Part shown: positions 14,663 to 37,886 of the stretch, one piece after another
Numbering within the stretch: position 1 is the first letter of the stretch
How the letters are laid out: the number at the start of each line of letters is the position of its first letter
Sequence record: OZ317122.1
Strand: one strand, 5' to 3'
Length of the DNA stretch: 64,000 bases
Source of the DNA: a phage
The notes under the pieces: model-generated
What the model saw: the letters and a program-made list of their open reading frames with translations, nothing else
What the model was told of the DNA's origin: nothing
Databases searched by the model: none
Made by a program: the position numbers and the translations under genes

Positions 14663-14905
14663 TTATTCCTTAATTCCTAGTACTTGTTTAAAAGTCTCGT
14701 CGTAATCAAGACTTTGGCCCGTTTGTTCTTTATGTTTGTATATAATATCACTTACTTCTGATAGCATATTTTTATATGAACGAGTTAAAGCAGATTTAAG
14801 CACGCTGTATCTATCAGGAAATTTACCATGTTCATTATAATAAGCTATTGCTAATTCACGGACTGCCTTTTCAGCAGTCTCCATATATTCTTTACGCTTT
14901 GTCAT
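14663..14905 (-). CDS. hypothetical protein
   Basis: Trimmed to ATG at 14903-14905. Confidence 0.4.
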
Positions 14906-15206
14906 TTTCTTCTCGGTCAAATCGGTGTTTACAATGGCGACATTTATAACGAAGAATACTAGTCTGCCAATGAATCAATTGAACCTGTTCAGTTCCACAT
15001 TCAGGGCAATTAGGAACGTTTTTAGAAGCCCTTTCACGACGTTCAACCATGACCATTACAGAATCCCAATTAACAGGAGGGCTATAATCATCACAACCAT
15101 AAATCTTTCCACGCATTTCCATATCATCTTCCTCACCAGCCATAATAATTTTAATTAGACTAGAATTACTTGAAGCTGCAATGTCTTCTAATAGACGCTT
15201 TTTCAT
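14892..15206 (-). CDS. zinc-ribbon protein
   Basis: 104 aa; CPECG ... CRHCKH Cys pairs. Confidence 0.45.
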
Positions 15207-16132
15207 TTCAATACCTCAATAGCATTACGTAAACCATTTGCTTTTGCATTAAGAGCTTTTAACAATTTGGTGTGTTCTGCAATTTGGGCTTCAACTTCAA
15301 TCAAACGGGCATTGAGATATTCACGTTCTTCACTCAGATTATCAACCTTTTCTACTTTAGGCTCTTTTACAACTGTCTTATATGTATTAGGGTTCTTCAG
15401 TTTAATTAGAATGCGTGAACTGTATAACATTGAACCATTATCTTCGGTTTCGTCATACATTTCCACTACGTCCATAATTTTTAACATCATGCGGAGTTTA
15501 TAAGACAACGAACGAATAGTTTTGTTGTGCTTATTAATTTCTTTAGCTGTCATGGTGCCAAGATTACGTGAGTAATAATAAGGAACCTGGATATTAATTA
15601 ATACTGATGAACCACCTGGCTTGTGTGTTACTTCATCAGCAATAACCCAGTCCTTAACATGAACTGTATTTGTACGGTCATCGCCCGCGGTAAATAGTTT
15701 GCGAGCATGCTTAAAAAGCATATTCACTTGGTCATTGAATTGACAAGCAAATTTATCAGCAAATTTAGTTTCAGGAATGGTAGAAAACCAATCAGCCAAA
15801 TGAGTCTTTTTAACATCATTAACAATAGTAAATTCAACCAAATCGGTTATAGATGTCTCAGATTTAATGAAGCTCGGCTTCATAAAGTTTTTAATGTTCT
15901 CATGAGCTACAGTAGAAGATAACATACGAGAACGTTTAAACCATTCAAGCAAATTGCCTAACGAATGAGAATAAGCGTTTTGAGTATCTTTACAGATATG
16001 ATTTTCCTGACCAACATATTGAAGGAAATCACGAAGAATATTATTGATTACTGCTCTGTGCCCGATCTGATAATTACGGTGTTTAGTAATAAGACTGTCA
16101 AAATAATCAATATAATGTTTACGAGTTTTCAT
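15203..16132 (-). CDS. coiled-coil-tailed protein, paralog family member 1
   Basis: 309 aa; starts MKTR; C-terminal heptad-rich tail [42 protein letters not shown]. Confidence 0.5.
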   Translation of the reverse strand: MKTRKHYIDYFDSLITKHRNYQIGHRAVINNILRDFLQYVGQENHICKDTQNAYSHSLGNLLEWFKRSRMLSSTVAHENIKNFMKPSFIKSETSITDLVEFTIVNDVKKTHLADWFSTIPETKFADKFACQFNDQVNMLFKHARKLFTAGDDRTNTVHVKDWVIADEVTHKPGGSSVLINIQVPYYYSRNLGTMTAKEINKHNKTIRSLSYKLRMMLKIMDVVEMYDETEDNGSMLYSSRILIKLKNPNTYKTVVKEPKVEKVDNLSEEREYLNARLIEVEAQIAEHTKLLKALNAKANGLRNAIEVLK

Positions 16133-16184
16133 ATTCTTCTCACTTGGTTAATGGTTTATACTCCGAGCCATCCTTGGCTTTAAA

Positions 16185-17186
16185 TTACTTAATTAACTGT
16201 AAAGCTTGTTCAAGACGATCAAGACGATTAACGGATTCTTCCCAAATCTTTTTAGCCTGCTCATATTCTTTCTGCGCTTTATTAGAAATTTCTAGAACTT
16301 CTTTATAAGCTTTTTCTAGTGCAATAACTTCTGGACGAATTTCTACTGGTTCAGGCGAATCGTCAAGACATTCCATTAGTTCCTCAAGGGTAGTTTCTTC
16401 TTTAGGAGTATTCACAATTTCATCACATTTTTGTTGGTAAATTTCTTTATCAGTCGGTGAGTACGCACACTTTACTTCACGGAGACTAACTACAATTTTA
16501 TATCCTTCCCAACCGCATATATTCTTAAAAGGATAAGTATGAATATTTTCTACTGTTTCCATACAAAGTAATGCGGTCTCTAACTGACGAGTTATATCAC
16601 TAGCAATTGAGAAAAATTTATTAATGTTCTTTTGATTAGCTTCTGGTGTAAAAAATTCATAATTCACAAAAATAGCTGCTTTATTTTTATCAAGTTCATA
16701 TTCTTTTATGATAATCATATCAGAAGCCAAAGGATGAATTTGACGATAATCGCCATAACATAATTTAGAAGCTGATTTTAGAATTTGCTTCTTGAAAAGT
16801 CTAAAATTACTAATCCAACGACGAGTAAAAATATTCTCAGGGTCTTCTTTATTATTAAGATGATAAGAATTAACATCACCGAACCAACTGTATCCTACTA
16901 CATCTTTGGTTCGTTTAATTTCTTTCCCAAAATTACTAAGAATATCTTGATTAACTAAATATGAAAGAAGACGAGAACCTTTAAAAGTTTCCTTAATATC
17001 ATCTTTATATTCGCGACTAGAAATTTTATGAACTTCATGAATAAATTTGCTTGAAGAAACAATACTTGCATCAATATTATTGAGCCATTGATTGATAATG
17101 GAAAGAACGCTATTTTGGCCAAACATCGGTATAGCTTTATCATCAATAACGCTATTGAATGATTTGATATATTCGTTACGAGTCAT
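16185..17186 (-). CDS. coiled-coil-tailed protein, paralog family member 2
   Basis: Trimmed to ATG at 17184-17186; central motif RRWISNFRLFKKQILKSASKL; coiled-coil tail. Confidence 0.5.
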   Translation of the reverse strand: MTRNEYIKSFNSVIDDKAIPMFGQNSVLSIINQWLNNIDASIVSSSKFIHEVHKISSREYKDDIKETFKGSRLLSYLVNQDILSNFGKEIKRTKDVVGYSWFGDVNSYHLNNKEDPENIFTRRWISNFRLFKKQILKSASKLCYGDYRQIHPLASDMIIIKEYELDKNKAAIFVNYEFFTPEANQKNINKFFSIASDITRQLETALLCMETVENIHTYPFKNICGWEGYKIVVSLREVKCAYSPTDKEIYQQKCDEIVNTPKEETTLEELMECLDDSPEPVEIRPEVIALEKAYKEVLEISNKAQKEYEQAKKIWEESVNRLDRLEQALQLIK

Positions 17187-17243
17187 ATTAATCTCCTCAG
17201 TAGAAAGTAAGAACATTATACCACATCCTTGTGGCAAAGTAAA

Positions 17244-18263
17244 CTAGTTTAGTGCATTTAGTGCATTGTTCAGTTTAGAACGTTGCTTCGTAAGATTTTT
17301 GACTTTTTCTTGAGCTTTTTCTAGCATCTTTTCAGCTTCTAACACTTCATTAGTTGCTTTAACGAGTTCATCATCTACTGCCTTAAGAGACTTCTCAATC
17401 GCGTCAGCGTGCCATTTTTCTACAGGTTTAAAATTTGAATTTTCAGTAGGAAGAAAACTCACTTTATTAAGTTTACATGCATCTATATTGCTTGAGCTAT
17501 ACATCCAAAATTTAGGATCGTTTGATGAGCAATTAGATAAATTTAAGTTATCTTGCACTTCCTGCTTTTTCTCTTGCGGGACTTCATCCTTTCTCAAAAA
17601 ATCGTATTTAAATGAAACGATCATATCAAGTTCATACGTTGTTGTATGTTCCCAATTTCGCTCAAAATGAGGTAAAATCTTAGACTGAACAGCGGCAACA
17701 ACATCCATATACTTAAACGCTTCTGTCAACTGTGATTTAAGGCATTCACAAATTGAAAGAGAATTTTTTGTATTAGGTTTAAAGCTAATTCGTGCAGTTC
17801 TATTATTTTCTTTTAATGGTCTTACTTCCATCTGAAGAGTATAACCATCAAATTTCAGGTTCTTTAAGTTAATGTCAGAACCTTTTAATCGACTAGCCGT
17901 CGACAAAATTTGTTTTAATTGTTTACGGAATAGAGCAATAAATCTCCATTCAAGACGGTAATGATTTGGATTAAAAAATCCTGTTGATAAATCAACCTTA
18001 CTCTGACCAACGCCTTGAACAAATAGAGGATTTTTATAATCAATAGTTTTACAGAAATCGGTGAGCTGTTCGCGAGCAGTCATTTGCGTAATATATCCAG
18101 CTTTATCAAAATGTCGCAGCCATTCACTGCTATTCATATACTTAAAGTGAATGGAACTATTAACTCTATCAGGGTCTAAATTATTTTGGCACAAAAATGT
18201 CATAACATCACGAGTATAACTGGCATTACGAACCATATCTTCAATTTGAGAACGAGTTTTCAT
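17244..18263 (-). CDS. coiled-coil-tailed protein, paralog family member 3
   Basis: 339 aa; starts MKTR; central motif LEWRFIALFRKQLKQILSTASRL; coiled-coil tail. Confidence 0.5.
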   Translation of the reverse strand: MKTRSQIEDMVRNASYTRDVMTFLCQNNLDPDRVNSSIHFKYMNSSEWLRHFDKAGYITQMTAREQLTDFCKTIDYKNPLFVQGVGQSKVDLSTGFFNPNHYRLEWRFIALFRKQLKQILSTASRLKGSDINLKNLKFDGYTLQMEVRPLKENNRTARISFKPNTKNSLSICECLKSQLTEAFKYMDVVAAVQSKILPHFERNWEHTTTYELDMIVSFKYDFLRKDEVPQEKKQEVQDNLNLSNCSSNDPKFWMYSSSNIDACKLNKVSFLPTENSNFKPVEKWHADAIEKSLKAVDDELVKATNEVLEAEKMLEKAQEKVKNLTKQRSKLNNALNALN

Positions 18264-18271
18264 GGTGTTCC

Positions 18272-19159
18272 TTAAGATTTAAGTAAATCAACAATTTTAA
18301 TTAACTTTTCACGCTCAGATTTAGCTTTACTACTCAATCCAGATAGTCTGAAAATTTCATCATCATATTGTTGAATAGAAATATTCAGCTCTTCAATCTG
18401 TTTATTAAAATAATCAATTTGTTCAGAATGTTTTTCGTTACTACGAACTGGTACAGGTTTTGTAGGCAATTTAGTTGAACTGGATTCATCCGGGCGATAA
18501 ATTAAAATACAATTTGAACCAATCGGGCATTTAGCACCAGACACATATTCTAGTGTTCCAGCTTCTTTTAAAACTTCAAAAGCTAAACAAAGATGATGAC
18601 CCATATTGACATAATCTGTAGAGTGAGCTCTGATGTAATAATCATCTCCACGAGTACTAAATTTAAAGCATTTAAGGTCTTCTGTATTATTGGTCTTAAA
18701 AATCATTTGTTTATCTAGACCTTTAGCTAATCGAGCGCCTAATGCTAATAATCGTCGTTGATTTTCCCACAAATCCGCAATCATTTGGTCAAATGATAAT
18801 TTCGGCATTAGTCGACCATAAAGGTCATATCCTTTATTATAATTGCGAAGGATTTCACTCGCATTAATACGAGACAACGCTCCAATTTTATTAAGGGCTT
18901 TCATGATGCGATTAGATAAACCCATTCCAGATCCGTTTGTTCGTTGCAAATGTTTATCTAACCCAAACCCAATATCAACTTTAAATTTATCTAAAATTTC
19001 AGCATGAACATCTCTGTCAATAACATTCAAATCCAAAGTTGGGTTAAATCTATGAAAAAATTTATCTGGCTCTCCACGACGAAGTACAGTCCATTCATTT
19101 AATTTTTTATTAACTAAAGATTTAATTACTGCATTGACATTATTAATTACTACTGACAT
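18272..19159 (-). CDS. coiled-coil-tailed protein, paralog family member 4
   Basis: Trimmed to ATG at 19157-19159; weaker central motif LWENQRRLLALGARLAKGL; coiled-coil tail. Confidence 0.5.
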   Translation of the reverse strand: MSVVINNVNAVIKSLVNKKLNEWTVLRRGEPDKFFHRFNPTLDLNVIDRDVHAEILDKFKVDIGFGLDKHLQRTNGSGMGLSNRIMKALNKIGALSRINASEILRNYNKGYDLYGRLMPKLSFDQMIADLWENQRRLLALGARLAKGLDKQMIFKTNNTEDLKCFKFSTRGDDYYIRAHSTDYVNMGHHLCLAFEVLKEAGTLEYVSGAKCPIGSNCILIYRPDESSSTKLPTKPVPVRSNEKHSEQIDYFNKQIEELNISIQQYDDEIFRLSGLSSKAKSEREKLIKIVDLLKS

Positions 19160-19629: not shown

Positions 19630-20157
19630 TTATGCGAGTACCGTCTTTAACCGTTCTTCAAACTTCCGAAGAGTATTCTGGCGTTCAGCTCTTTGCTTTT
19701 TGTAAGTTTCAATACGCTCTGAAATGAGAGTGTATCGTTCATTTACTGATTCTTTCATAAAATCAGGAATTTCACGAGAAGCTTTAATCTCATCAAATTT
19801 ATCAATAACAGCTTGCTCTTCAGCAATTAAGTTATCATACATCAAAATATCTTTCTTGATGAACTCAATATCTTCTTGAGTTACACGAGATAATTTAGAT
19901 GCTTTATCCTTTTTGTACTGTTCGTTAGTATCACGAGACCAGTGTAATGTACGATTTTTATTCGTATTCTTGTAAATTTCTACAATACCAATCTCATCGA
20001 TAATAACGATCCAATTCCAACGAGATTTGTAAATTTGTCCTCCGTCAACCGTGATTTCACCTCCGATTGAGATGTCATTAAAGAACTTACTTTGTGCTTC
20101 AGATTTAAATTTACCATCGTTGTAATTTACCAGGTTGAAAATATCTTTAGCGTTCAT
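19630..20157 (-). CDS. hypothetical protein with C-terminal coiled coil
   Basis: Trimmed to ATG at 20155-20157 (GGAGG upstream); track N-terminus is translated promoter. Confidence 0.5.
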   Translation of the reverse strand: MNAKDIFNLVNYNDGKFKSEAQSKFFNDISIGGEITVDGGQIYKSRWNWIVIIDEIGIVEIYKNTNKNRTLHWSRDTNEQYKKDKASKLSRVTQEDIEFIKKDILMYDNLIAEEQAVIDKFDEIKASREIPDFMKESVNERYTLISERIETYKKQRAERQNTLRKFEERLKTVLA

Positions 20158-20623: not shown

Positions 20624-21591
20624 TTATTTCAGAAGAGTAACCGTAGCGATTTCTTCCCAACCGTTTTTGTCGGTCATAATGAAGTCAGCAAGATAAAGAG
20701 CAGTACGCAGTGAAACATTACGTAAACGGTTAACATTGACTTTCATCCATGATAATGCTTTATAAGTTTCTTCATCAGAAAGACCGCGCTTTTGCATCAT
20801 GTCGGTTGAAAGAATAACATCTTCAACCCTGACCATAATTTCTTCATTAGTGTGAACACCCAAATCTAAATAAACTGAGCGGGACACTAATGCTTGTAAA
20901 TGTGGAGCAAGTTTAGTACCACGGTCTAATTCGCGGTCAATATCAACGTTTGTGATAAAAACAATCGTTCCTTTAAATTCAAACTCACGCTCAATGCCTT
21001 TTTCTTCTAAGTAAGAAGATGCAGTGCTCCAGCAGACTTTACGGGTCTCTCCAGTGTCCAGAGCAGCTTTCAGAAGATTAAGAATGTCCATATCAGAGAA
21101 AACATCCACATCATCAATCAAAAGGACAGAATTCTCTTCACGATTATTCCAGAGCTGCTCATAAAGACCGATACCTGAGATTTTACCATTAATGCTTTTA
21201 TACTCAATGTATCCAATATCATTTGCTTTATTTAAAGCTTTATCTAAAGAATACGTTTTACCAATACCCGCCGCACCAGAGATAATTAATGAACGAATGT
21301 TTCCGTTAATAATACCATTCGTCATCATTCCCATAACATTAAATCTTTTATTAATGCGGGTTTTCATATCTTCATATGATTCTTTAACTTCTTCAACTTT
21401 TACACCATCATATGAAATGTCTGATTTGTAAACCCAAACACCGCGACGCTTACCGTCAATTTCAACAAAAACTTTACCATCTCCTTGTGCATCCACCGGA
21501 GCATTATCTGGGAACCATTCGCCTAAGAGCTCAAAAGTTCCAGAGATTTCTTTACCAAAGTAGATACCCTTATTGATAGTTACAGTTTTCA
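20624..21591 (-). CDS. P-loop ATPase (AAA-like), 322 aa
   Basis: Walker A GAAGIGKT, Walker B VLLIDDVD; trimmed to ATG at 21589-21591 downstream of promoter (GGAG upstream). Confidence 0.6.
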
Positions 21592-21619
21592 TTTTATTCT
21601 CCAAATCCGTATCAGTTGA

Positions 21620-21680
21620 TAGTTGTATAGTACCATAAAGCTTTATGCTTGTAAACCGTTTTGTGAAAAATTTTTGAAAT
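21620..21680 (-). promoter_or_regulatory. T4-type early promoter
   Basis: agttgatagttgtatagtacca...gtaaaccgttttgtgaaaaa signature between terminator and ATPase gene. Confidence 0.55.
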
Positions 21681-21706
21681 AAAAAAAGGGAGCCCGAAGG
21701 CTCCCT
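21681..21706 (-). terminator. rho-independent terminator
   Basis: Minus-strand RNA gggagccuucgggcuccc followed by 7 U; directly after stop of 21708..22721. Confidence 0.7.
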
Positions 21707-21707
21707 A

Positions 21708-22721
21708 TCATTTATAATAACTTCGGTGGTTTTCAAGATAGACCTTCTCAAGGAAGTCATCCCAGAAACCCATGTCTACTTTTTGCTGCATACCGTTCTT
21801 AGAAGCTTCAGTAGATGCTGCTTCTACTTGATCGACCACATCTTCCAAAAACTCTTGAACGGTTTTAAATGGATGTTTACCCAACTTCACGTCGAGAATA
21901 AATGGAGCGTCTTGAAGTGGATAGACTAAGTCGCCAGTTTTGTAAATTTCCAATAGTTGGAGTCCACCACGGCAAGCATGACTCAAAGCTTTCCAGTCAA
22001 TACCTTCATTGGCTTCGGCCTTACGAGCACGTTCACCGTATTCAGCATCTAATTTATTCAGTGACTGCTTAAGCTCAATAAGAGAAAGCGTTGTCTGATA
22101 TTTACGACCCAACACTGTGTAGAACGTTTGTGGGCCTGTTTTCTCATGATTATGGAACACCCATTCACAGAATTCGTTTTCTGGAAGACGATGCTTAATA
22201 TCTTCAACTTTAGTACGACGCTGCTTAATGGAACCGTCTTCTTGGTAATCAACCCATTGCTCAGGGATTTGATTAACTACTTTCAATACATCACGCAATG
22301 CGGCCAAACGAGAACCCTTAACACCATATTTAGAAGCTTGCTTGCGGACATATCCTAAATAGGATTTCATGTTAGTCGTATAAAAACGAGAACGATTGTC
22401 TTGAATAAACTTCCATACATCAGGCAAATCTGATTTAACCACTAGCTCAGGTGGAGTGTGAAGCATATCCAACGCTACAGTTTCACCATCTGCTGCTAAT
22501 TTAAAGAAATATTTAAGACTGTATAGTTCATGGTCAATATCATCTTTAGTGTTTTTAGATGATGTGTTGTTAGTGTTTTTACTCATGTGCTCTTTGACAT
22601 TTCCGATAAGAATATCGCGAGCAGGAGGAACAAAGATTTCTTTAAAATCGACATCAGATTCTGGTGTAGAAGTTCCATAAAGATGACTACCAAAATAACT
22701 TTTCATTACTGTTTTCATCAT
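21708..22721 (-). CDS. nucleotidyltransferase-fold protein, 337 aa
   Basis: N-terminal GSHLYGTSTPESDVD (GS-x10-DxD) then downstream acidic residue in ALDML. Confidence 0.55.
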   Translation of the reverse strand: MMKTVMKSYFGSHLYGTSTPESDVDFKEIFVPPARDILIGNVKEHMSKNTNNTSSKNTKDDIDHELYSLKYFFKLAADGETVALDMLHTPPELVVKSDLPDVWKFIQDNRSRFYTTNMKSYLGYVRKQASKYGVKGSRLAALRDVLKVVNQIPEQWVDYQEDGSIKQRRTKVEDIKHRLPENEFCEWVFHNHEKTGPQTFYTVLGRKYQTTLSLIELKQSLNKLDAEYGERARKAEANEGIDWKALSHACRGGLQLLEIYKTGDLVYPLQDAPFILDVKLGKHPFKTVQEFLEDVVDQVEAASTEASKNGMQQKVDMGFWDDFLEKVYLENHRSYYK

Positions 22722-37131: not shown

Positions 37132-37207
37132 CTGGTCGAGGCAGTAGGGATCGAACCTACGACCCAGGACTTAGAAGGTCCTTGCTCTTCCTTCTGAGCT
37201 ATGCCTC
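37132..37207 (-). tRNA. tRNA-Arg (anticodon TCT)
   Basis: Cloverleaf: acceptor CGAGGCA/TGCCTCG, anticodon loop CTTCTAA, T-arm GTAGGTTCGATCCCTAC, CCA encoded. Confidence 0.85.
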
Positions 37208-37211
37208 GTAT

Positions 37212-37286
37212 TTGGCGGACGTGATAGGATTCGAACCTATAACCAATCGCTTAACAGGCGATCGCTCTGCCATTGAGCTACACATC
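37212..37286 (-). tRNA. tRNA-Asn (anticodon GTT)
   Basis: D-stem GCTC/GAGC, anticodon stem ATCGC/GCGAT with loop CTGTTAA, T-arm ATAGGTTCGAATCCTAT, CCA encoded. Confidence 0.8.
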
Positions 37287-37290
37287 CAAA

Positions 37291-37377
37291 TTGGTGGGGA
37301 GTGGTGGAGTCGAACCACCCGAGTCGCAATGACAATGGATTTACAGTCCACACCGCTACCTCTACGGGATAACTCCC
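37291..37377 (-). tRNA. tRNA-Tyr (anticodon GTA), long variable arm
   Basis: Anticodon stem GTGGA/TCCAT with loop CTGTAAA; T-arm GGTGGTTCGACTCCACC; 87 nt; D-arm pairing less clean. Confidence 0.7.
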
Positions 37378-37387
37378 CAAATTAATT

Positions 37388-37462
37388 TGGTGGCCCTGGG
37401 TGGAATTGAACCACCATCTGGCGATTATGAGTCGCTTGCTTGAACCTTCCAGCTACAGGGCC
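37388..37462 (-). tRNA. tRNA with CAT anticodon (Met or lysidine-type Ile, as T4 tRNA-Ile)
   Basis: Anticodon loop CTCATAA; T-arm GGTGGTTCAATTCCACC; CCA encoded. Confidence 0.8.
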
Positions 37463-37463
37463 T

Positions 37464-37539
37464 TGGTGCTGATTGACGGAATCGAACCGCCGACCTTCTC
37501 ATTACAAGTGAGTTGCTCTACCTACTGAGCTAAATCAGC
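37464..37539 (-). tRNA. tRNA-Thr (anticodon TGT)
   Basis: D-arm TAGCTCAGTAGGTAGAGC, anticodon loop CTTGTAA, T-arm GGCGGTTCGATTCCGTC. Confidence 0.85.
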
Positions 37540-37544
37540 AAAAC

Positions 37545-37634
37545 TGGCGGAGGCGATAGGATTTGAACCTATGAGTCGCCGGAGCGACTGCCGGTTTTCA
37601 AGACCGGTGCATTAAACCACTCTGCCACGCCTCC
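37545..37634 (-). tRNA. tRNA-Ser (anticodon TGA), long variable arm
   Basis: Anticodon stem CCGGT/ACCGG with loop CTTGAAA; long variable arm; T-arm ATAGGTTCAAATCCTAT. Confidence 0.85.
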
Positions 37635-37636
37635 AG

Positions 37637-37710
37637 TCTCCGTGGCAGGATTTGAACCTACGACATTCTGCTCCCAAAGCAGACGCTCTACCAAACTGAG
37701 CTACACGAAG
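37637..37710 (-). tRNA. tRNA-Pro (anticodon TGG), 3' CCA not encoded
   Basis: Anticodon loop TTGGGAG; acceptor CTTCGTG/CACGGAG; only 2 nt separate it from tRNA-Ser. Confidence 0.8.
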
Positions 37711-37720
37711 TAAATTAAAT

Positions 37721-37794
<74 letters not shown>

Positions 37795-37799
37795 AAATT

Positions 37800-37886
37800 T
37801 GGTGCGAGAAGTGGGACTCGAACCCACAAGGAAATCATTCCGCAGCATTTTAAGTGCTGTGCCTTTACCAATTTGACCATTCTCGC
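37800..37886 (-). tRNA. tRNA-Leu (anticodon TAA), long variable arm
   Basis: Anticodon stem CAGCA/TGCTG with loop CTTAAAA; T-arm GTGGGTTCGAGTCCCAC. Confidence 0.85.

Follow-up and report, generated by a model that had tools for sequence, protein, structure and literature searches.

Results

Four consecutive genes at the nrdC locus of a T4-like phage

We analyzed a 64,000-nt stretch of phage DNA from sequence record OZ317122.1 (the window), and in particular its locus at positions 15203-19159, where four consecutive genes on the minus strand encode proteins of 309, 333, 339 and 295 amino acids. These had been described, from the window's letters, as a tandem array of paralogs with globular heads and C-terminal coiled-coil tails (the original prediction); the coordinates, lengths and quoted peptides of the four open reading frames (ORFs) are all correct, and the MKTR start attributed to members 1 and 3 is present. 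The window is a Tequatrovirus (T4-like) genome: a 3978-bp region is matched by 657 phage records, with many Tequatrovirus genomes at 97-98.5% identity, and both the GC fraction of about 0.33-0.36 and the minus-strand gene block are as in T4. We took gene names from a comparison with the annotated T4 reference NC_000866, and the gene order after nrdC is nrdC.1, nrdC.2, nrdC.3, nrdC.4, nrdC.5, nrdC.6, nrdC.7 (a membrane protein), nrdC.8, nrdC.9, nrdC.10. Because the T4 comparison supplies their names, the four ORFs are known T4 genes, nrdC.3 to nrdC.6. We refer to nrdC.3 and nrdC.4 as family A, to nrdC.5 as family B and to nrdC.6 as family C. The four genes, and a promoter-like site that lies among them, are:

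15203..16132, minus strand: member 1, nrdC.3 orthologue (T4 synteny), 309 aa, family A (PF26897 / phrog_1435)
16185..17186, minus strand: member 2, nrdC.4 orthologue, 333 aa from its ATG, family A
17244..18263, minus strand: member 3, nrdC.5 orthologue, 339 aa, family B, DUF7235 (PF23882)
18272..19159, minus strand: member 4, nrdC.6 orthologue, 295 aa, family C (PF26899 / phrog_2257)
17215..17243, minus strand: T4-early-type promoter-like site, (G)TTTACT-17-TATAAT and then the ribosome binding site GAGGAG, in the nrdC.5/nrdC.4 spacer (consensus match)

Full-length profile matches place each protein in its family: member 1 in phrog_1435 (E 7.8e-116), member 2 in phrog_1435 (E 1.8e-167; its homologues carry PF26897, 'Phage_T4_Y04OP'), member 3 in PF23882 over positions 1-339 (DUF7235, E 1e-117, 393.4 bits against a gathering cut-off of 30) and member 4 in phrog_2257 (E 6.3e-153; 105 homologues carry PF26899). 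In both PHROGs and Pfam all four proteins fall in families of unknown function, and NCBIfam gave no meaningful matches. Member 1 is 61.6% identical in amino acids to T4 NrdC.3, member 2 is 93% identical to NrdC.4, and member 3 is 89% identical to NrdC.5 over its full length and stands in the same order, nrdC.4-nrdC.5-nrdC.6; within the phage collection member 3 is a fairly distinct allele, its best match being 95.6% and most matches 90-95%. The shorter start codons originally chosen are correct, since the family alignments begin there (MTRNEY for member 2, MS..IN for member 4) and the member 2 ATG is preceded by the ribosome binding site GAGGAG. T2 and R3 are invariant in family A, member 2 beginning MTR and members 1 and 3 MKTR. 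The promoter-like site directly upstream of nrdC.4 agrees with the consensus at 10/12 positions in a consensus scan, a sequence match alone.

Relationship of members 1, 2 and 3

Each protein carries a central motif, at the following positions:

15674..15727, minus strand: member 1 motif VNMLFKHARKLFTAGDDR (residues 136-153), aligned with the member 2 motif (A3 alignment)
16743..16823, minus strand: member 2 motif RRWISNFRLFKKQILKSASKLCYGDYR (residues 122-148), a helix pair (alignment and AlphaFold2 (AF2) model)
17874..17954, minus strand: member 3 motif LEWRFIALFRKQLKQILSTASRLKGSD (residues 104-130), from its hhalign alignment to the member 2 motif
18713..18772, minus strand: member 4 motif LWENQRRLLALGARLAKGLD (residues 130-149), near-invariant in 33 homologues

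As judged from sequence comparison, nrdC.3 and nrdC.4 are certain to be paralogs: members 1 and 2 align by BLASTP at 25% over 226 aa (E 1e-6) and by hhalign with a probability of 97.9% (E 3.6e-13), and they have phrog_1435 and PF26897 in common. The motif claimed to be shared by members 2 and 3 is marginal as a bare pair (BLASTP 50% over 24 aa, E 0.07, in a 9-protein database) and becomes significant at the profile level, where hhalign of family A with family B gives E 2e-6 to 5e-5 and a probability of 68-90% over 144-251 head columns. The two families also have the N-terminal M(K)TR in common, and they are bridged by a metagenomic protein of 315 aa, P0234, whose head matches family A (E 1.5e-12) and whose tail matches family B (E 3.5e-11), and which hhalign aligns with family B over its full length at a probability of 95.6%. 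Either P0234 is an intermediate in evolution or it arose by head/tail recombination, and its mixture of an A-type head with a B-type tail suggests modular exchange. These profile results make it very likely that nrdC.5 is paralogous to nrdC.3 and nrdC.4. Apart from ATGAAAACTCGT (MKTR), with which nrdC.3 and nrdC.5 both begin, the copies share no more than short chance DNA repeats, and this lack of meaningful repeats indicates that the duplications are old.

The gene for P0234 (L008 1817-2764) stands as a single copy amid small unknown genes on a 3.8-kb metagenome contig. NrdC.8 was considered as a fifth member of the array and set aside, since it has a weaker heptad-like tail but no hhalign link to the four; tblastn likewise gave no tie between NrdC.8 and a 175-aa protein of Klebsiella phage KPV15 that had appeared as a Foldseek match. 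The gene itself (window 19630-20157, minus strand, 528 nt) is at least 99% identical in 403 phage records.

Member 4 and the predicted structures

By sequence, member 4 is not significantly similar to the other families: hhalign against A or B returned E 0.004-0.3 with a probability of at most 10%, where reversed-profile controls lay at 0.3-0.8, and cross-matches between hidden Markov models (HMMs) reached at most 10 bits. Adding DSSP secondary structure to the A-C comparison brought a marginal gain (E 0.024 local, 0.004 global). The weak A-C alignments are collinear over 112-160 columns and pair equivalent elements, G.LSR.NA..IL.NY with SRLLSYLVN.DIL..F and NQRRLLALGARLA.G.D with ...ILKSA.KL..GD; hhalign also sets the member 4 motif opposite those of families A and B, but non-significantly. 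Pairwise and profile alignment thus uphold the proposed paralogy for members 1 to 3 and do not reach significance for member 4.

The AF2 models of members 2 and 4 (82.5 and 78.6, respectively, in the predicted local distance difference test, pLDDT) have an identical order of elements: motif-1 helices, a helix pair with a short helix, a beta-hairpin, a long helix, a second beta-hairpin, a linker and the tail. We ran Foldseek against BFVD with both models. That of member 2 matched NrdC.3 at E 6.6e-8 and NrdC.6 of phage JS10 at E 3.1e-5, the latter with a probability of 1.00 and template modeling (TM) scores of 0.37/0.43. The structural neighbors common to the two models, which are also reciprocal, are uncharacterized Straboviridae proteins of 300-370 aa from T4-like phages of Acinetobacter, Pectobacterium, Enterobacter, Klebsiella, Erwinia and Serratia. 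Among solved structures, a sequence search returned spurious designed helical repeats and ribosomal proteins and nothing else.

Could nrdC.6 be no paralog at all, but an unrelated alpha/beta protein that came to have a similar tail by convergence or by tail exchange? The non-significant alignments given above, and the fact that Pfam keeps three separate families, would fit such an origin. We nonetheless regard it as unlikely, since independent AF2 models show the elements in one and the same order, starting with the motif-1 helix and finishing with the tail, since even the weak hhalign alignment is collinear and pairs equivalent elements, and since the Foldseek match is backed by shared reciprocal neighbors. 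To the extent that the models can be trusted, it is quite probable that member 4 shares ancestry with members 1 to 3.

C-terminal helical tails

The original prediction held that the four products end in a heptad-rich helix of roughly 40 residues. Such helices are indeed found at all four C-termini, and they are somewhat longer, at 50-58 residues:

15206..15355, minus strand: tail of member 1 (residues 260-309), heptad helix with the end ...LRNAIEVLK (heptad score)
16188..16334, minus strand: tail of member 2 (residues 285-333), one predicted helix (AF2 and heptad score)
17247..17420, minus strand: tail of member 3 (residues 282-339) (heptad score)
18275..18436, minus strand: tail of member 4 (residues 242-295), predicted as two helices interrupted at LSGLSS (AF2 and heptad score)

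We scored each tail in its best single heptad register across the whole tail and compared the score with composition-preserving shuffles (n=2000). Every tail keeps one unbroken register throughout; hydrophobic residues occupy 12/14, 12/14, 15/17 and 12/15 of the a/d positions in members 1 to 4, and the observed scores were attained by 8, 2, 0 and 0 of the 2000 shuffles, respectively. When the last 49 residues of the 62 window ORFs of at least 120 aa are ranked by heptad score, the four genes take ranks 1-4. The AF2 models place helix H285-332 at the end of member 2 and helices H242-271 and H277-294 at the end of member 4, so that the tails show continuous heptads in predicted helix, which is the mark of a coiled coil that we looked for. 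Anchored at their C-termini, the four tails share one register, in which position -9 is L, -6 is A/I, -5 is L/V/I, -2 is L/I and -1 is K/N. The corresponding pattern, L-x-x-[AIV]-[LIV]-x-[LVA]-[LI]-[KN], occurs in 4/88 window ORFs, these four alone, and in 6/20,000 tail shuffles; having been read off these very sequences, it is descriptive and post hoc. Conservation within families is highest in the tail and the two motif helices, and the N terminus, beta region and linker vary; in family C the tail of member 4 is strongly conserved (DDEIFRL, LLK).

Distribution, alleles and rearrangements

We compared copy number across related phages and found two to four copies. All loci examined have the genes in the order nrdC.8 - C - B - A (- A), with varying content:

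Tequatrovirus: A, A, B, C
Dhakavirus, phage 212 and other viral-contig loci: A (nrdC.4 type), B, C
Mosigvirus MM02: A (nrdC.3 type), B, C
Mosigvirus ESCO47: A and C only

A search of viral contigs gave 13 related loci, all of them T-even-like and with the gene order unchanged. Further away, in Acinetobacter phage Acj61 (Twarogvirinae), two Foldseek matches correspond by length to the adjacent genes p120 and p121, which lie between nrdC and nrdC.10 and both encode a heptad tail. The family is a narrow one: a HMMER search of 1.84 billion representative proteins with the family A profile gave 10 matches, all T4-like or fragments, with neither bacterial or distant relatives nor a direct match to family B or C among them. 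P0234 came to light in this search. Acj61 has in its early region another tandem pair, p076/p077 (L009 14028-16322), of 372 aa and recorded as copies, and it also carries NAD-salvage genes (nicotinamide phosphoribosyltransferase and ribose-phosphate pyrophosphokinase).

Within Tequatrovirus, nrdC.3 is a hot spot of divergence: it is 68.6% identical to T4 in nucleotides, against 94-99% for the flanking genes, its synonymous divergence (dS) between the window and T4 is about 1.0, and its alleles fall into classes of at least 90%, 74-78% and about 60% protein identity. The gene-wide ratio of nonsynonymous to synonymous divergence (dN/dS) between the window and T4, by the NG86 method, is 0.17-0.30 across the four genes. 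Since dN/dS is below 1 and the alleles are deep, the variation is that of old alleles swapped by recombination, with gene loss, pseudogenes and fusions in addition; the arms-race selection that had been proposed, taken as positive selection, is not demonstrated.

Several natural rearrangements affect the array. NrdC.6 of the T4 reference (L001 10067-10894) has 275 aa, a frameshift after ...QIEEL removing the whole helical tail, and the T4 annotation of the HIDEN-SEQ study gives nrdC.6 as 891 nt; the shortened reference gene reflects either a difference between strains or a mistake in the reference. In phage vB_EcoM_G8 (L013 7950-9030) nrdC.4 is split into ORFs of 193 and 158 aa and is probably a pseudogene; the 158-aa piece is the best BFVD match of the member 2 model. 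NrdC.6 of Shigella phage Sf25 (P0122, 378 aa) contains an exact internal tandem duplication of 83 residues (IRAHSTDYVNMGHH...NKQIEEL), which takes in the latter half of the alpha/beta subdomain and the beginning of the tail. Finally, the 299-aa protein P0120 is a natural fusion of the middle part of NrdC.5 with the C-terminal half of NrdC.3, produced by a deletion that took nrdC.4 and parts of both its neighbors.

Published functions at the locus

The original prediction knew of no assigned function for these genes, a statement that has been overtaken for member 3. An evolved, deletion-bearing T4 clone had become unable to infect ECOR17 owing to the sirtuin defense gene dsr1, and T4 nrdC.5 alone, supplied from a plasmid, restores plating of the deletion mutant on MG1655 carrying dsr1 (Srikant, Guegler and Laub, eLife 2022, PMC9391042); the same study names nrdC.5 an early gene, and the anti-Dsr1 activity was tested there for the T4 nrdC.5 allele only. 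According to a 2026 preprint (PMC12803255), it is the major capsid protein of the phage that triggers the TPR sensor of Dsr1, a sensor also present in Avs7. Neighboring genes also inhibit defenses: gp49.2 inhibits OLD (PMC13096335), nrdC.1 inhibits Septu and bas37_0203 inhibits Druantia type III (bioRxiv 10.1101/2025.11.20.689424), and from its position and length in that paper's gene table bas37_0203 is the nrdC.8 orthologue. On E. coli K-12, nrdC.3-nrdC.6 score as non-essential (bioRxiv 10.1101/2025.11.20.689424). Our literature search found nothing on the function of nrdC.3, nrdC.4 or nrdC.6, nor on the four genes as one family.

Discussion

A proposed role as modular early inhibitors of host immunity

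The genes themselves are already known T4 genes, and for one of them a function has been published. The apparent novelty lies in joining nrdC.3, nrdC.4 and nrdC.5 at the family level, with a common plan of head and tail, a link that probably includes nrdC.6 as well. The idea of a diverged tandem family of early accessory genes is supported by our results. An anti-defense role for the family holds for nrdC.5, through the action of its T4 orthologue against Dsr1 (PMC9391042), and agrees with the inhibition of defenses by neighboring genes; because nrdC.5 switches off a bacterial immune protein, its three paralogs are good candidates for a similar job, and for nrdC.3, nrdC.4 and nrdC.6 we infer it by that kinship. 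With moderate confidence, we favor the view that all four descend from one accessory gene of T4-like phages by tandem duplication long ago, have diverged since and act as modular early inhibitors of immunity.

On this proposal, the four genes would lie in an early-transcribed island of immune-evasion genes, and each protein would consist of an N-terminal helical region, the motif-bearing conserved helix pair, an alpha/beta subdomain of two beta-hairpins around a long helix, and a flexible linker followed by an amphipathic heptad helix of about 50 residues. Action would be stoichiometric: each paralog, made early, would bind and block a different host immune protein before the late phage proteins that would trigger that protein are made. 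The variable parts of the head may set target specificity, and the tail may serve for oligomerization or docking, which would raise avidity for oligomeric immune complexes.

Several observations weigh against this proposal. The HIDEN-SEQ screens covered gave no defense target for nrdC.3, nrdC.4 or nrdC.6; the literature searched contains no published mechanism for nrdC.5 against Dsr1, and direct binding by NrdC.5 is an assumption that we draw from analogy. In the middle of the member 2 tail the a positions are Y/Y/W and the d positions A/A/S, which is no canonical parallel coiled-coil core. Member 4 is not significantly linked by hhalign, and its place in the family depends on AF2 models with predicted TM (pTM) scores of 0.66-0.67 and on Foldseek TM scores of just 0.37-0.43. 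Several polar residues are conserved across families (an Arg in motif 1 and K/R-L-x-x-G-x-D in motif 2), which might point instead to a ligand-binding or catalytic site common to them. Lastly, with gene-wide dN/dS below 1, positive selection is not demonstrated.

Other possible roles for the tails and for the array

The tails could have a different purpose, namely to dock all four proteins on one shared partner (a host machine, or the AAA+ protein NrdC.10 or the nucleotidyltransferase NrdC.11), with the variable heads as adaptors, each delivering its own target to that partner. The common register and end pattern of the four tails, their conservation, which within each family equals or exceeds that of the head, the apparent modular exchange in P0234 and the linkage of nrdC.10 and nrdC.11 to the array even in Acj61 are all in keeping with such a tag. 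Beyond the last 10 or so residues, however, the tails differ strongly between families, and nrdC.5 by itself was enough to complement the T4 deletion mutant, though that phage may have retained nrdC.10 and nrdC.11. On balance we think a docking tag rather improbable.

Still less probable, in our estimation, is that the four proteins are subunits of a single hetero-oligomer assembled through the tails and having one function. Their genes are adjacent, in fixed order and probably co-transcribed, and the shared register and end motif could reflect joint assembly, but relatives manage with two or three of the genes (A-C, A-B-C), natural pseudogenes occur, plasmid-borne nrdC.5 restores infection of dsr1-carrying cells by itself, and widely divergent alleles take the place of nrdC.3 between neighbors that remain unchanged.

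A similarly long shot is that the family consists of early decoys, built on a fold like that of a virion component (a tail terminator) and oligomerized by the tail, each of which would occupy the fold-recognizing sensor of a different immune receptor before the late structural proteins appear. We count phage tail terminator and completion proteins (lambda gpU, T5 p142, Mu, SPP1 gp17-like and gene transfer agent (GTA) proteins) among the nearest known systems. If the family were made of decoys, NrdC.3, NrdC.4 and NrdC.6 should inhibit other members of the TPR-sensor family (which includes Dsr1, Avs7 and proteins with other effectors) or other Avs-type sensors, and the nrdC.3 allele classes should track host receptor variants.

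We give practically no credence to the GenBank label 'thioredoxin', by which the genes would be ordinary accessories of nucleotide metabolism or redox chemistry: it stands in hundreds of phage records and the genes adjoin the true glutaredoxin gene nrdC, but the four proteins have no thioredoxin-family Pfam or NCBIfam match, no CxxC motif and a predicted fold of different topology, on which grounds we reject the annotation. The label appears to have spread from the names nrdC.N, which record just map position. It is widely applied from nrdC.3 to nrdC.8, and NrdC.8, like NrdC.3-.6, is without a thioredoxin-family Pfam or NCBIfam match.

Comparison with known systems

Returning to our proposal that the genes are modular early inhibitors, the nearest known protein is T4 NrdC.5 itself, of which member 3 is the orthologue by identity, map position and DUF7235; the activity against Dsr1 belongs to the T4 allele, from which member 3 is fairly distinct. 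Members 1, 2 and 4 are in the same way orthologues of T4 NrdC.3, NrdC.4 and NrdC.6. In the databases, families A, B and C stand apart with no relation to one another; our profiles and a bridging protein join A with B, and predicted structure joins C to them. The products 49.2, NrdC.1 and NrdC.8 belong to the same early, non-essential accessory locus and have similar biology; they are, however, small single-domain proteins that lack a detectable sequence relation to the four, and NrdC.8, with its weaker heptad-like tail, is highly conserved, unlike the four variable genes. DSAD1 of phage SPbeta is a functional analogue of NrdC.5, since it neutralizes the sirtuin defense DSR2, a SIR2-domain NADase; the two would share as a target a SIR2-domain NADase whose sensor recognizes a virion protein. 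T4 IPI, IPII and IPIII likewise combine a short conserved module with variable bodies, and some of them (IPI, IPIII) are anti-defense proteins (general knowledge and PMC9391042). Their module is an N-terminal capsid-targeting motif for packaging, whereas that of the four genes is a C-terminal heptad helix of about 50 residues attached to a whole shared fold, and there is no sequence relation between the two groups.

If the family is as we propose, three orphan genes of T4, the phage studied best of all, become testable candidate inhibitors of other bacterial immune systems, and the array suggests a reusable design in which a conserved scaffold and tail carry variable surfaces. The locus is extended across Straboviridae to phages of Acinetobacter, Klebsiella, Erwinia and Serratia, which is relevant to the host range of therapeutic T4-like phages, and both the allele classes of nrdC.3 and the number of copies could be used to mark host range. 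A widespread misannotation as 'thioredoxin' is also flagged.

Other features of the window

The small gene nrdC.2 (window 14892-15206, minus strand) overlaps the end of nrdC.3 by 4 bp (ATGA); its product has two CxxC pairs (CPEC...CRHC) and weak zinc-ribbon Pfam matches. In the nrdC.10-like AAA+ ORF (window 20624-21760, minus strand) the first 56 residues are probably untranslated; the PHROG match does not start until residue 57, and the extension contains a strong GC-rich terminator hairpin (21687-21706). Nine tRNA genes (Arg, Asn, Tyr, Met-type CAT, Thr, Ser, Pro, Gly and Leu) are found at window 37133-37886 on the minus strand, and this cluster accounts for the GC bump at 36-38 kb. T4 has eight tRNAs, and the set in the window differs from it, for example in including Tyr and Asn.

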